Virus record (IMG/VR): IMGVR_UViG_2721755711_000002
Origin: a virus
Taxonomy: Duplodnaviria > Heunggongvirae > Uroviricota > Caudoviricetes
DNA: 64,000 bases
Reading direction: 5' to 3' (one strand)
Shown: piece by piece, positions 5,654 through 47,014 of the stretch
Position numbering within the stretch: position 1 is the first letter of the stretch
Layout: each line of letters starts with the position of its first letter
Position numbers and translations under genes: made by a program
The notes under the pieces: model-generated
The model's input: the letters and a program-made list of their open reading frames with translations, nothing else
The model's database searches: none
What the model was told of the DNA's origin: nothing

Positions 5654-6880
5654 ATGCATGGACTAGTTTTGACAACAGCCGGGGCAGCCGAAATTGAAGC
5701 TGCATATCATGCCGGTGAGGTGGTGACCATCAGTCAGGTGATGATTGGTGACGGGGGCGGGAAAACACTGCCCTCAACGCCGGATGAGATGGCGGCGATG
5801 GTCATGTTGTGTGGTGAGTTTGGTCGGGAGCCCTTTTCAGGCGGCGTGGTGGACGAAGGTTTTATCAGCGGGGATATTGTCATTGACTGTCAGTCATACC
5901 CGGGTAAGACCCTGCGCGAGCTGGGAATGGTGAGTCATCGTGGTACGCTGATTGCGTATGGTCGTTATCCGGATACGTATTTACCGGCACAGACGGATTC
6001 CGTTATCAAGGAGGTGATACTGACACTGGTTCTTGCGCTTACACATACACAGAGTGTAACGCTGAATGTTGATCCGCACAGGGCGATTATCACGCAGGAG
6101 GCCGGAGATAAACGATATCTGCGTATCAGTGAAAATCTTGCTGATGTGAAAGACAGGGATGAGGCTGTTGAAAACCTCGGATTAAAACCTACGGTGGACA
6201 AGGCAAAAAATGCCGTTCAGCGTGATGGCGACACCATGACAGGAAAGCTGACGCTGCCCCAGACCTCCGGATTTGGTGTTAACACTGACAATGCCCTGGG
6301 CGGTAACTCAATTGCTCTCGGAGATAACGATACCGGTATAAAGCAAAACGGCGACGGCATTCTGGATGTTTATGCGAATGGTCAGCATGTATTTCGTTTT
6401 CAGAATGGCGTGGCGATGGCGTTAAAAAATATTCAGGCCGGAAATGGCAGAATGTTTACGCTATCCAGTTCTGACAGTTCCACGAAGAACGTAGGGTTTA
6501 ATTTATGGGGCAATCCATCCAGACCTGTAGTTGCAGAACTTGGTGATGATTCCGGCTGGCATTTCTACAGTCAGAGAAATACAGACGGTAGCGTCACATT
6601 CGCTGTAAACGGACAGATGACCCCATCAAACTACGCAAATTTTGATGCCCGCTATCAGACAAAAACAGGTGGCGTGCAGAATTTTCAGTACACCAGTGAG
6701 GTGTTTTACAACCCGGGAGGGAACGAACTCAGCTGGACGTTCCGCGCACCGTCTGGTTGTACCCTGTCCGGTATTCTGGTTCAGGATACCGGCAGAAACT
6801 CTGCGGATAATATCGGTGGTGTGTATTACAAACAGGCCCAGATTTATATAAATGGCGCATGGCGCTCAGTATCAGGTTAA
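5654..6880 (+). CDS. Tail fibre protein, P2 gpH-like N-terminus with P1/Mu-type C-terminal domain
   Basis: N-terminus VLTTAGAAEIEAA...MIGDGGG like P2 H; C-terminal TDNALGGNSIALGDNDTGIKQNGDGILDVYANGQ domain; last ~66 aa unique. Confidence 0.8.
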   Translation: MHGLVLTTAGAAEIEAAYHAGEVVTISQVMIGDGGGKTLPSTPDEMAAMVMLCGEFGREPFSGGVVDEGFISGDIVIDCQSYPGKTLRELGMVSHRGTLIAYGRYPDTYLPAQTDSVIKEVILTLVLALTHTQSVTLNVDPHRAIITQEAGDKRYLRISENLADVKDRDEAVENLGLKPTVDKAKNAVQRDGDTMTGKLTLPQTSGFGVNTDNALGGNSIALGDNDTGIKQNGDGILDVYANGQHVFRFQNGVAMALKNIQAGNGRMFTLSSSDSSTKNVGFNLWGNPSRPVVAELGDDSGWHFYSQRNTDGSVTFAVNGQMTPSNYANFDARYQTKTGGVQNFQYTSEVFYNPGGNELSWTFRAPSGCTLSGILVQDTGRNSADNIGGVYYKQAQIYINGAWRSVSG

Positions 6881-6893
6881 TTAAGGAAAAATA

Positions 6894-7421
6894 ATGGAAC
6901 TCGTAAACGTTACGCGTTACTACCCTGAAGACATGCCTTATGGTGAAGGCATTCAGTATTTCCGTAGTGAAGACGGGCAGGATTTTTATGAATCACTGGA
7001 TAAATTCACGAAGAAATACAAGCTGTGCACGCATCCTGAAACCGGCGTTATTTATTCAATGGCGGAAGACGTATCCCGGCTTTATCCGGCAGGTTTTACC
7101 ATTGTGGAAGTGGATGAACTGCCGGAAGGTTTTGGCATTGAAGCCAGCTGGTATTACAAAGACGGAGAAGTGCTGCCGGTGCCTGTTGATTACTCGCGAC
7201 TGGCAGAAAAAAAACGCCAGAGCCTGCTGAATGAAGCAAAGGACATCACCTCCGACTGGAAAACCGAGCTGGAGCTGGGCACCATCAGCGATGATGACAA
7301 AGCCCGTCTTACGCAATGGATGGCATATATCAAAGCGGTAAAGGCGCTGGATTTAAGTCAGGTCAGTGATGAATCATCTTATAATGCCATTGAGTGGCCA
7401 GTACCTCCACAGAACATCTGA
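6894..7421 (+). CDS. Tail fibre assembly protein (Tfa / P2 gpG-like)
   Basis: 175 aa directly downstream of fibre gene; C-terminal ...SYNAIEWPVPP shared with the second tfa at 14669..15217. Confidence 0.75.
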   Translation: MELVNVTRYYPEDMPYGEGIQYFRSEDGQDFYESLDKFTKKYKLCTHPETGVIYSMAEDVSRLYPAGFTIVEVDELPEGFGIEASWYYKDGEVLPVPVDYSRLAEKKRQSLLNEAKDITSDWKTELELGTISDDDKARLTQWMAYIKAVKALDLSQVSDESSYNAIEWPVPPQNI

Positions 7422-42049: not shown

Positions 42050-42428
42050 TACCGCCTCCTCCCCGCAGACGGGAGAACAGCCCGAATACCAGCGATGCGA
42101 TATCCTGCTGGTGGATGAATGAGAGAATCTTCACCGACACCACCGATACCAGTACCGCGCAAAGCGCGTCGAGAGATGTGCTGTGGAGATTCAGTTTTTC
42201 AACCAGGTAAGACGCCATCACATCCGCCCCCAGCACGCCAACAATGAACGACACCAGAAAATGCGCTGCCACACGCCAGACAGAAATCTTCTGTGGTATC
42301 GTGGCCACAAACAGCGCCCCTGCGAATGCACCAAACACAATCCCGAAATCCGTTCCGGTAAACAGCCCGAATACCGTCGCCCCACCGAGCGCCGCAGCCG
42401 TGCCGGAACCGGATAAGGGTTCAGACAT
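42039..42428 (-). CDS. Holin-like membrane protein
   Basis: 129 aa, Gly/Ala-rich hydrophobic helices; RBS aggag. Confidence 0.55.
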   Translation of the reverse strand: MSEPLSGSGTAAALGGATVFGLFTGTDFGIVFGAFAGALFVATIPQKISVWRVAAHFLVSFIVGVLGADVMASYLVEKLNLHSTSLDALCAVLVSVVSVKILSFIHQQDIASLVFGLFSRLRGGGGNVK

Positions 42429-42521
42429 ACTTTTTCTCCTGTAAATAAAAAAGGGCCGCTGTCGGCCCGTAAAAAAACCCCCCGTCAAAGGCACCCACAG
42501 ATGCCTTTTGTGTGGTGCTAT

Positions 42522-42728
42522 TTATTGCTTTAGTGTCATTTGCGCTTCAATAAAGCGACGGCGGTTCTCCGCAATAACAAACGCCATTGCCAGCCCTTTG
42601 ACGGCTGCATCATGACCATACCGGGTCTGAGCAGCAGCAAACCTTCGTTCTATCGCTGCTACAGAATCAATGGCAGAATCTGCTATGCAATTTTCAAATT
42701 CAGTTATCACTTCTGTCGAAGAGGTCAT
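42522..42728 (-). CDS. Small hypothetical protein (uncertain)
   Basis: 68 aa; its ATG abuts the divergent plus-strand ATG within CATATG. Confidence 0.25.
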   Translation of the reverse strand: MTSSTEVITEFENCIADSAIDSVAAIERRFAAAQTRYGHDAAVKGLAMAFVIAENRRRFIEAQMTLKQ

Positions 42729-43409
42729 ATGTACTCCCTGAAAATTAGATGCCCGTACTGCCTTCATCAGGTTCATATTTCTCTGAATGAGGTCACCCAG
42801 TACCACAGCAGGCGCCCGGCTACAGAAAACAAGCTTTACGTGCAACAGCCGCGCACCTCTGAAATAACATCAGCAAAAGCATACTCAACAGACTTTTGCA
42901 CAGAATGTAACAACCCATTAATGATCGCATTCGAATGTTCAGTCAGTGAACTGGTGGACATGAAAAAAGCCATCAACAACAAAGCCTGGGTGCTGAATGC
43001 TCCACTTGAGGGAAGCATCAAAATCTATCCTGAACTCAGGCTGCCCGATGACTCCCCCCACTATCCCGAAAAAATTCGCGCAGTCTTCACCGAGTTGCAA
43101 GAGGATGTTCGGTCCGGCAGAACCGCCCCGCGTATCATTGTTGGCTGCCGTAGCGTCCTCGAGGTTGCCCTCCGTGCCCTGGGGTACGAAAAAGGCAATC
43201 TGCTGTCACGCATTGAACTGGCACGGCAGGACGGCATACTGACGGAATCAATGAGAAACTGGGCTCACCGAATCCGTATGGAAGGCAATGAGGCTGTGCA
43301 CGAGCTCGAGGCCAGTGGTGAACAGGCAAAAGAGTTTGTGGCGTTTCTCCGCCTGTTCCTTGAAGTGGCATTTGTGCTACCGGAACGCATTAAGGAACAG
43401 CAGCAATAA
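42729..43409 (+). CDS. Zinc-ribbon protein with C-terminal DUF4145-like domain (cargo gene, opposite strand)
   Basis: CPYC...CTEC pairs at N-terminus; C-terminal ...RNWAHRIRMEGNEAVHELE... resembles DUF4145; RBS gaagagg. Confidence 0.55.
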   Translation: MYSLKIRCPYCLHQVHISLNEVTQYHSRRPATENKLYVQQPRTSEITSAKAYSTDFCTECNNPLMIAFECSVSELVDMKKAINNKAWVLNAPLEGSIKIYPELRLPDDSPHYPEKIRAVFTELQEDVRSGRTAPRIIVGCRSVLEVALRALGYEKGNLLSRIELARQDGILTESMRNWAHRIRMEGNEAVHELEASGEQAKEFVAFLRLFLEVAFVLPERIKEQQQ

Positions 43410-43443
43410 AAATGCAGCGGGCTTTCAATGCCCGCTCAAATAA

Positions 43444-43602
43444 TCAGCTGTTGTTTTTGTTCCGGAATAAAGGCCGGAGCACGACCAGCGCCATCGCCAC
43501 CAGTACACCATCAGCCAGTACCGACATCAGCCGTCCGGTGAAATCCACCGCCACTACCAGAAACAGCAGGACGGCAGCCAGCGCAAGGCGTGCACTTTTC
43601 AC
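43444..43602 (-). CDS. Small two-helix membrane peptide (52 aa), coupled to TerB-like gene
   Basis: GTG start overlaps TerB-like stop (GTGA); translation KSARLALAAVLLFLVVAVDFTGRLMSVLADGVLVAMALVVLRPLFRNKNNS; below ORF-track size cutoff. Confidence 0.3.
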   Translation of the reverse strand: MKSARLALAAVLLFLVVAVDFTGRLMSVLADGVLVAMALVVLRPLFRNKNNS

Positions 43603-44024
43603 AGGTACTGCTCCAGCGGTAACTGCAGCGCCTGAGCAATTTTCTTGAGCTGTGCTTCTTCATCCGGACCAATGCCATCCTGGTCTGCGATATCCAGACA
43701 CAGGCACAGCACATTAACGGCATCATCAGTACCGGCGACATCAGCCAGTTGACGGAGGGCTTCAGCATTGGCAGAACGCGGCGATGCTTCATAACGGGCG
43801 CGGATATTCGCGCTCATCTGGGCAATCTCACCGGAGAACGGCGCAAAGGCAGGAAGTGCTGCAATGGTTTTCTCCAGTACCGCAATTTCTTTCGCGTCAC
43901 AGGTGTCGTCAGCGTATGCAATGGAATACGCGCCCCAGACGGTCGCCTCCACCGCGTCGCGGTTCTCCATTTTCTTCACTTCAGTAATAGCCTTACGGGT
44001 TTTCTTTTTGAAAATACCAAACAT
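43599..44024 (-). CDS. TerB-like domain protein
   Basis: ~141 aa; acidic helical protein (...DTCDAKEIAVLEKTIAAL...DIADQDGIGPDEEAQLKKIA) resembling TerB family. Confidence 0.5.
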   Translation of the reverse strand: MFGIFKKKTRKAITEVKKMENRDAVEATVWGAYSIAYADDTCDAKEIAVLEKTIAALPAFAPFSGEIAQMSANIRARYEASPRSANAEALRQLADVAGTDDAVNVLCLCLDIADQDGIGPDEEAQLKKIAQALQLPLEQYL

Positions 44025-45112: not shown

Positions 45113-45189
45113 TGGAGAGCGGGTGACGGGAATCGAACCCGCATCATCAGCCTGGAAAGCTGAGGTAATAGCCATTATACGATACCCGC
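45113..45189 (-). tRNA. tRNA-Gly(UCC)-like gene, possibly degenerate
   Basis: GCGGGTATCGTATAATGGCTATTACCTCAGCTTTCCAGGCTGATGATGCGGGTTCGATTCCCGTCACCCGC...; resembles glyT as recalled but with an A7-C66 mismatch and TCTCCA instead of TCCA at the 3' end. Confidence 0.5.
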
Positions 45190-46925: not shown

Positions 46926-46952
46926 AAAAAAACCCGCTTGGCGGCGGGTTTT
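46926..46952. terminator. Bidirectional intrinsic terminator just downstream of Q-like gene (tR'-like position)
   Basis: A-run, aacccgc-ttggcg-gcgggtt hairpin, T-run. Confidence 0.55.
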
Positions 46953-47014
46953 GCTTACTTTGCCATCGCGTACAAAATCGGCAAAATATCAGATTTGCAT
47001 GAAATATATGCTTT

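Follow-up and report, generated by a model that had tools for sequence, protein, structure and literature searches.

A predicted RAZR-like zinc-ribbon HEPN ribonuclease gene and a conserved partner gene are joined at their start codons in the lytic operons of temperate phages

In a 64,000-nucleotide stretch of viral DNA (the window; IMG/VR record IMGVR_UViG_2721755711_000002, Caudoviricetes), two genes on opposite strands begin at the same point. We find that they form a conserved two-gene module, in which a large gene predicted to encode a RAZR-like zinc-ribbon HEPN ribonuclease (RNase) and a small, previously undescribed partner gene are joined at their start codons, the former antisense and the latter sense to the lytic operons that carry them. 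The layout is no start-codon artefact. The original prediction, made from the letters of the window, had described back-to-back ATGs (CATATG), and both its coordinates and its description are correct: positions 42718-42740 read gaagaggtCAT followed directly by ATGtactccctg, with the plus-strand ATG from 42729, the minus-strand ATG at 42728-42726 and a gap of 0 nucleotides (nt). Its authors missed the main point, that the small open reading frame (ORF) is a conserved partner gene. The features of the pair are the following.

42522..42728, minus strand: small partner gene, 68 amino acids (aa), an acidic three-helix protein; ATG at 42728-42726
42729..43409, plus strand: large gene, 226 aa; N-terminal Cys4 zinc ribbon, linker, C-terminal DUF4145/HEPN domain
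42726..42731, both strands: CATATG junction; the start codons are directly adjacent (0 nt apart)
42719..42724, plus strand: Shine-Dalgarno sequence (SD) of the large gene, AAGAGG, 4 nt before its ATG
42734..42739, minus strand: SD of the small gene, AGGGAG, 5 nt before its ATG

The two N-terminal cysteine pairs noticed in the plus-strand gene are C8/C11 and C57/C60, and this Cys4 set is invariant in 61 diverse relatives. The zinc-ribbon and DUF4145 call was put to the profile search that had been asked for, and Pfam DUF4145 (PF13643; HEPN clan CL0291) matched residues 137-202 with E 2.3e-11 and 44.1 bits against a cut-off of 23.1. The protein displays the four-helix HEPN fold. In its AlphaFold2 model (pLDDT, the predicted local distance difference test score, 79), a β-ribbon of residues 2-71 with a disordered insert is followed by a helix, a linker and a five-helix C-terminal domain. 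The insert is long and variable and lies between the two knuckles of the zinc ribbon, and the linker carries the conserved motif YPEL..PDDSPhYPEKIR. Arg183, Asn187 and His191 are invariant or nearly so in our alignments A1 and A6. The R183-x7-H191 spacing falls outside the canonical HEPN Rx4-6H and is identical to that of R146/H154 in RAZR.

DUF4145 is indeed tied to restriction and abortive-infection proteins, as first suggested (PMC3710099), and its best-studied zinc-ribbon member is the abortive-infection RNase RAZR/PD-T7-4 (PMC13017515). This ring-activated zinc-finger RNase (Vassallo 2022, PMC9519451; Zhang 2026, PMC13017515) combines a Cys4 zinc ribbon with a DUF4145/HEPN domain in which R146 and H154 are required; its assembly into a 24-mer ring, formed around a portal or Gp77 ring of the phage, activates it, and its zinc finger domain sets specificity (PMC13017515). 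The large protein shares with RAZR a length of ~220 aa, the Cys4 zinc ribbon, the conserved linker, the DUF4145/HEPN domain, a putatively catalytic Arg/His pair seven residues apart and a fast-evolving zinc-ribbon half. Identity in that half is 24-53%, compared to 75% in the HEPN core, a difference that fits the specificity-setting role of the RAZR zinc finger domain. The clade in the window differs from RAZR in being only distantly related to it, in the long variable insert between the zinc-ribbon knuckles, and in having a conserved, divergent, abutting partner and an antisense position in lytic operons, whereas RAZR is described as a single-gene system. PADLOC ranks PD-T7-4 first both for the large protein (E 5.9e-4, 17.4 bits, residues 99-225, covering the linker and HEPN domain only) and for its relatives (E 1e-6 to 3e-9). 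An exhaustive profile search returned 2,360 representative clusters, 102 of them at E <=1e-30 and mostly full length. We conclude from these sequence comparisons that the large protein belongs to a sister clade of RAZR, not to RAZR proper; RNase activity and a function in defence are predicted for it. A further candidate identity, the DefensePredictor family DS-38 (‘HEPN + zinc finger’, WP_001313577.1), was rejected; that protein has 366 aa and an architecture without relation to that of the large protein, with an N-terminal HEPN domain and C-terminal zinc fingers.

The claim that at least one of the two starts is mis-assigned did not hold up, and such an error, for example a large gene that truly begins at the internal Met78 as in RefSeq, is very improbable. 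The same 981 bp occur in five of 5,426 complete E. coli genomes at 94-97.5% identity, and in four of the five PGAP calls a 149-aa product; the plus-strand frame of the window is moreover open upstream of 42729 as far as 42540. Both observations would allow another start. Against them, residues 1-77 are conserved, and M1, C8, P9, C11, C57, C60 and P63 are kept in 18 full-length homologues with identities down to 43%. The phrog_1305 profile matches residues 2-225, and in three related loci (L004, L010 and L012, in our numbering of fetched loci) an upstream stop codon leaves the conserved ATG as the first available start. On the other strand, the Met of the small protein aligns across its family, and extensions upstream of it are unconserved. 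By these measures of conservation, both genes and both starts are real. The RefSeq call from Met78 (window 42960; WP_162534621.1, e.g. L001 8481-8930, NZ_CP098183.1), which loses the zinc ribbon, is a truncation because M1 and the N-terminal residues are conserved, the phrog_1305 match begins at residue 2 and upstream stops fix the ATG. The only full-length RefSeq call among the five E. coli genomes is that of strain A34 (225 aa, WP_240766019.1). Public labels are affected as well: both phrog_1305 and gp19 of NC_029120.1 are named ‘DNA binding protein’, probably from the zinc ribbon, and their HEPN/RAZR kinship is not reflected.

In every related locus fetched, tblastn located a small ORF directly upstream of and divergent from the large gene, with 45-65% protein identity. 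Synonymous sites in the small gene are saturated (proportion of synonymous differences, pS, ~0.75; of nonsynonymous differences, pN, ~0.25), and the ratio of nonsynonymous to synonymous rates (dN/dS) is ~0.06-0.13 where measurable. The gene is thus under purifying selection and therefore not a pure antisense RNA. Its product carries the motif DS..DS..IER.FA.AQ...G..A..GLAMAF.IAENRRR and has no match in Pfam, NCBIfam or PADLOC; the family is rare, with 16 clusters in 5.8 billion proteins, none of them with a Pfam domain. AlphaFold2 models it as a three-helix bundle (pLDDT 87; helices 2-12, 19-37 and 39-67). The isoelectric point (pI) is 5.7, and the family is mostly acidic (pI <7 in 22 of 27 members), which would be unusual for a small DNA-binding repressor. 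Alignment A5, with 61 sequences, was too diverse for the locus search, and A6 was used in its place. A metagenome scan with a broader alignment gave 80 more loci, where relatives at 24-35% identity again had a divergent ORF of 60-90 aa. When the profile of 14 close small proteins was compared by hhalign to that of 11 distant divergent ORFs, the two aligned over 61 columns (Prob 94.5%, E 7e-8); the partner is therefore ancient and not a local accident.

The junction itself is conserved. The start-to-start distance is -2 to +2 nt in ~19 distinct loci and ~19-29 nt in three more. Among closer relatives it is 0 nt in E. coli, 1 nt in Trabulsiella, Budvicia and L019, 2 nt in L010 and -2 nt (a CATG overlap) in the Pantoea loci, and the junction takes the forms CATnATG, CATnnATG and overlapping CATG. 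CATG-overlapping divergent ORFs are present in L020, L021, L032, L033, L035, L044, L061/65 and L080, and divergent ORFs ~19-29 nt away in L025-27, L028/29 and L030. Divergent overlaps are the rarest class in prokaryotes, with 331 against 12,737 co-directional overlaps in 58 genomes (PMC2174442), and the recurrence of the spacing in the aligned loci indicates that the head-to-head arrangement is far beyond chance. RefSeq annotates the exact back-to-back pair in E. coli A34 (L002, NZ_CP028741.1; 6042..6248 minus, 6249..6926 plus).

The translation signals of the two genes are embedded in each other. The large-gene SD, AAGAGG, is the reverse complement of small-gene codons 2-4 (Thr-Ser-Ser), and the small-gene SD, AGGGAG, that of large-gene codons 2-4 (Tyr-Ser-Leu), with SD/anti-SD duplex energies of -6.5 and -7.7 kcal/mol, respectively. 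Counterpart SDs are found in most relatives, and in loci with spacers of ~19-23 nt (L026, L030) both lie side by side within the spacer. All eight intact close relatives have xCC (Ser or Thr) as the third codon of the large gene despite the four-fold degeneracy of the last position, which indicates selection on the SD of the small gene. Because each SD is embedded in the first codons of the other gene, any SD-dependent mRNA must begin inside the coding sequence of the other gene, and each promoter must lie there too. The two mRNAs should therefore be complementary over at least ~25-30 nt, spanning both SDs and both start codons. Regulation by antisense overlap, the alternative to a mis-assigned start in the original prediction, thus survives as a reading of the sequence and is strengthened by the mutually embedded SDs. 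The A34 copy (L002 6249-6260) has a 6-nt deletion in large-gene codons 2-3 (MLLKIK versus MYSLKIK) by which the small-gene SD is lost, a natural variant useful for testing the coupling of the two genes.

To place the pair in its genomic setting, we annotated the neighbors wherever a locus had sufficient flanking sequence. All 11 different insertion sites follow one rule, with the large gene antisense to the adjacent lytic genes and the small gene running with them; were orientation random, the probability of this would be at most ~0.001. Carriers span cultured Shiga toxin (Stx) phages as well as Mu-like, lambdoid and P2-like elements, and the sites are as listed here.

Site 1, E. coli: between DUF3927 and holin
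Site 2, Budvicia: between Q and endolysin
Site 3, Pantoea: between Q and endolysin
Site 4, L010: between spanin and small terminase
Site 5, L020: before baseplate J, with stop/start overlap
Site 6, L021: before Mor and tail lysozyme
Site 7, Mu-like L026/L028/L029: between Ner-like/orf162 and transposase A, with stop/start overlap
Site 8, L061: before DUF1367/NinG
Site 9, Shigella phage 75/02 Stx: after DnaC-like and Ren
Site 10, PhiR12_3
Site 11, Paracoccus Pben1: tail region, between tape measure and tail fibre

The region of the window is a lambdoid (phiP27-like) prophage of Escherichia. The genes flanking the pair, all on the minus strand, encode or specify a Q-like antiterminator, an isrK-like element, a DNA methyltransferase, tRNA-Gly, TerB, DUF3927 and, beyond the pair, two holins and an M15 endolysin. 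The Q-dependent late transcript thus runs against the large gene, which agrees with the antisense position relative to the late operon that had first been proposed; the gene sits in the moron zone where Stx phages have stx. Elements around the cassette are the following.

42443..42468, minus strand: strong intrinsic terminator, GGGCCGACAGCGGCCC then TTTTTTATTT, between the small gene and the holin gene
43416..43436, both strands: G+C-rich hairpin immediately beyond the large-gene stop codon
47015..47710, minus strand: Q-like antiterminator gene

Six other diverged loci (L002, L003, L004, L005, L019 and L030) have a counterpart hairpin with a T-run after the small gene. Read on the minus strand, the hairpin at 43416-43436 has a T-run and terminates the TerB/DUF3927 unit; the plus strand offers only a weak, distant T-run after it. 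With terminators on both sides, the cassette is therefore insulated in lambdoid contexts, and Q-modified polymerase would read through them. Mu-like and P2-like contexts lack antitermination, and there translational coupling ties the small gene to the following lytic gene, whose start it overlaps in L020 and L026/L029. At the left end of the Mu-like metagenome element L028 (2368-3806), a CI-like helix-turn-helix (HTH) S24 repressor gene is divergent from a Ner-like gene, which is followed by orf162, the pair and transposase A; by this order the cassette is embedded inside the early operon. We considered whether the pair could be a Mu c/ner immunity switch, as the small gene directly precedes transposase A, and rejected this, since in L028 the upstream region already holds a Ner-like gene and, separately, a CI-like S24 repressor.

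The explanation we favor treats the pair as a self-contained two-gene cassette of temperate phages. In the large protein, the zinc ribbon would act as the sensor and the DUF4145/HEPN domain, with its R-x7-H pair, as the RNase effector. A promoter within the small gene would drive the RNase in the lysogen, where the enzyme would abort infection by other phages. Given the complementary 5′ ends of the two mRNAs, whichever transcript is in excess would block the other. Once the resident prophage turns lytic, transcription from the lytic promoter would cross the RNase gene in antisense, and polymerase collision together with an RNA duplex over the ribosome-binding site (RBS) would silence it. The same lytic transcription would yield the small protein, which may neutralize pre-existing RNase or shut the RNase promoter. 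The portal and other ring-forming structural proteins of the carrier phage would then fail to trigger suicide, providing self-immunity. Antisense control and the inhibitory role of the small protein are both proposed from gene layout and conservation. The whole chain, from a lysogen-made RNase through antisense silencing on lytic growth to a small self-immunity protein, is plausible, though it falls a little short of probable. More doubtful is the bolder proposal that the pair is a minimal bistable on/off switch for defence, built on a shared start-codon palindrome (CATG/CATATG), with each gene carrying the RBS of the other in its first codons and the promoter of the other in its body, and that the small product is the first of a group of protein inhibitors of RAZR-type HEPN RNases, conferring immunity on the carrier phage and perhaps also cross-immunity to related RNases that other lysogens carry.

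Several observations weigh against this explanation. A single gene suffices for RAZR, which has no toxicity by itself (PMC13017515). The similarity of the large protein to PD-T7-4 is weak at its E value of 5.9e-4, and no search with the large protein, sequence and profile searches of the PDB among them, retrieved a RAZR chain. The large gene is intact beside a degenerate small gene in L009/L023, L040 and L041, and therefore the partner is not always required; Klebsiella phage 2b and Burkholderia phi644-2 likewise have an intact large gene and no partner. Partner-less relatives lie mostly among housekeeping genes, a contrast that phylogenetic distance confounds, since these relatives are the more distant ones. 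A conserved terminator after the small gene in lambdoid contexts suggests that the gene is transcribed without antitermination as well, that is, in the lysogen, which fits a steady-state regulator or antitoxin equally with a lytic-phase antidote. Finally, scans for sigma-70 promoters on both strands gave none that was convincing, the consensus tool returning one chance-level site, and the only recurrent element in a position weight matrix scan, TGnCAGAAT at -55, coincides with conserved Asp-Ser codons.

Four other explanations of the pair accept both starts. The small protein could be a gene regulator that represses the large-gene promoter inside its own coding sequence, or acts on the overlapping RNAs, and so clears convergent transcription from the lytic operon. 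The large-gene promoter must lie within the small gene, its convergent firing in Mu-like phages would hinder transposase expression, the C-terminal RRR motif of the small protein is conserved, and the terminator after the small gene suggests a transcription unit of its own. We nevertheless consider such a regulator unlikely, as the protein matches no HTH or other DNA-binding family, is modeled as a helical hairpin bundle and not a helix-turn-helix, and belongs to a mostly acidic family, and as L028 already has Ner-like and CI-like regulators upstream. An obligate two-component defence, with the small protein as a subunit or adaptor for sensing or activation and both genes co-expressed from a shared bidirectional control region, would account for their strict co-inheritance across very different insertion sites and long evolutionary distances, and small accessory subunits are common among defence systems. 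The head-to-head layout with complementary 5′ ends disfavors co-expression, however, and intact large genes persist beside degenerate or absent partners. RAZR needs no partner (PMC13017515), and the fixed orientation relative to lytic operons would be left unexplained; we judge this arrangement quite unlikely.

A toxin-antitoxin-like module, in which the small protein, or its mRNA as a type I-style antisense RNA, is a labile antidote whose loss on infection frees the RNase, has a marginally slimmer chance than that. The genes are divergent rather than operonic, no MNT nucleotidyltransferase is encoded by the small gene, L009/L023 keep the large gene although the partner is lost, and overproduced RAZR is not toxic. 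The abutment might also have no regulatory meaning at all, with genome compaction having placed an unrelated lytic-operon gene beside a moron; phage genomes are tightly packed, and morons are often antisense to late operons. We give this little credence. The same two homologous genes occur together in 11 different insertion sites, their -2 to +2 nt spacing outlasts the saturation of synonymous sites, four-fold degenerate positions that form the SD of the partner are conserved, and the layout belongs to the rarest class of prokaryotic overlap (PMC2174442). Among these alternatives, the favored reading of the pair as an RNase with a lytic-phase off-switch can be set beside several known systems.

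Face-to-face promoters or control by 5′ antisense RNA operate in IS10 RNA-IN/RNA-OUT, coliphage 186 pR/pL, P2 Pe/Pc and type I toxin-antitoxin systems such as symE/SymR. The predicted transcripts of the pair would resemble these in their convergent promoters, in complementary 5′ ends over an RBS and in mutual or one-way repression. They differ in that both RNAs are predicted mRNAs of conserved proteins, and in that the overlap covers both RBSs and both start codons, with a shared palindrome. Prophage defence with self-immunity is known from P22 SieB/Esc, where Esc is an internal translation product. BstA/aba (PMC8585504) and TerI/anti-TerI1/2 (bioRxiv 10.1101/2025.02.27.640495) are likewise prophage defences with cognate self-immunity. 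In all three, as proposed for the pair, a prophage-borne defence gene is physically coupled to an element that spares its own lytic cycle. The aba element differs in being a DNA element inside bstA and the anti-TerI genes in being ordinary genes, and none of the three systems is known to have a head-to-head start-codon overlap or a HEPN RNase. The pair differs from HEPN-MNT (HepT/MntA) in its partner, which is no nucleotidyltransferase, in its divergent rather than operonic genes, and in the zinc-ribbon sensor domain of its HEPN protein. A further likeness is HepS of the Gifsy-1 prophage (PDB 9oik), a HEPN nuclease that is encoded by a prophage and recognizes a structural protein of invading phage.

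The head-to-head layout is also present in cultured phages, where it is already annotated but unremarked. Shigella phage 75/02 Stx encodes gp19 (224 aa, labeled ‘DNA binding protein’) and gp20 (81 aa) with a 2-nt overlap in the RefSeq annotation, and this gp19/gp20 type is found in 48 of 5,426 complete E. coli genomes. Compared to the small protein of the window, gp20 gave E 0.006 with the distant-group profile and no match to A8; by sequence it is only a positional counterpart. POCJ13 and PhiR5_2 carry a large-gene homologue of the 75/02 Stx type by tblastn, and the layout recurs in E. coli phage PhiR12_3 (ECOR13) and Paracoccus phage Pben1. In Paracoccus phage vB_PbeS_Pben1 (L105 1770-2567), GenBank splits the large gene into several short, misoriented coding sequences; the true large frame has 266 aa and lies in the tail-gene region with a 68-aa, CATG-overlapping partner. 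RelE/ParE-type and HicB-type toxin-antitoxin modules adjoin the pair in 75/02 Stx (L102 1392-1953) and in L019 (3256-4685), which suggests small defence or moron hotspots.

Some of the exceptional loci show how the partner is lost or missing. In L009 (5700-6010) and L023 (2787-2909), the small-gene ATG has changed to ATA, the frame stops after ~31 codons, and an inserted gene of 281 aa takes the place of the remainder downstream; the large gene is intact at 63% identity. Klebsiella phage 2b LV-2017 (KY271395.1; L103 2261-2890) has an unannotated RAZR-like gene that runs against the late operon, with spanin and small terminase as its neighbors and no partner ORF of >=45 aa at that locus.

Other elements of the late region complete the inventory of the window. 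The isrK-like Rfam match at 46927-46998 (minus strand) is weak (23.8 bits against a gathering score of 50, E 0.07); it lies directly downstream of the Q-like gene and may mark the late promoter and leader region there. An Rfam search of 42400-43500, around the pair itself, matched no known RNA. The tRNA-Gly(tcc) at 45117-45189 (minus strand) is the sole tRNA of the late region in the window, whereas the 97% identical L001 prophage of E. coli has tRNA-Gly and tRNA-Thr. TerB, of the tellurite-resistance family, and DUF3927 (43444-44024, minus strand) form a separate small moron upstream, with its own terminator at 43416-43436. DUF4145 genes have been recorded adjoining Ter-type anti-phage systems (PMC3710099).

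Database annotation of the large gene, which is truncated to 149 aa, mislabeled ‘DNA binding protein’ or absent, is corrected by these results, and the cultured phages and ECOR strains with the pair make the proposals directly testable. RAZR has only recently been explained mechanistically, as a stand-alone protein, and a large sister clade in temperate phages is now found to travel with a conserved partner, in one of the rarest gene layouts in bacteria. If the partner is an off-switch, it would be a natural inhibitor of a HEPN RNase and the pair a very compact, portable genetic toggle, and this would explain how a prophage can carry a sensor of phage rings without killing itself on induction.

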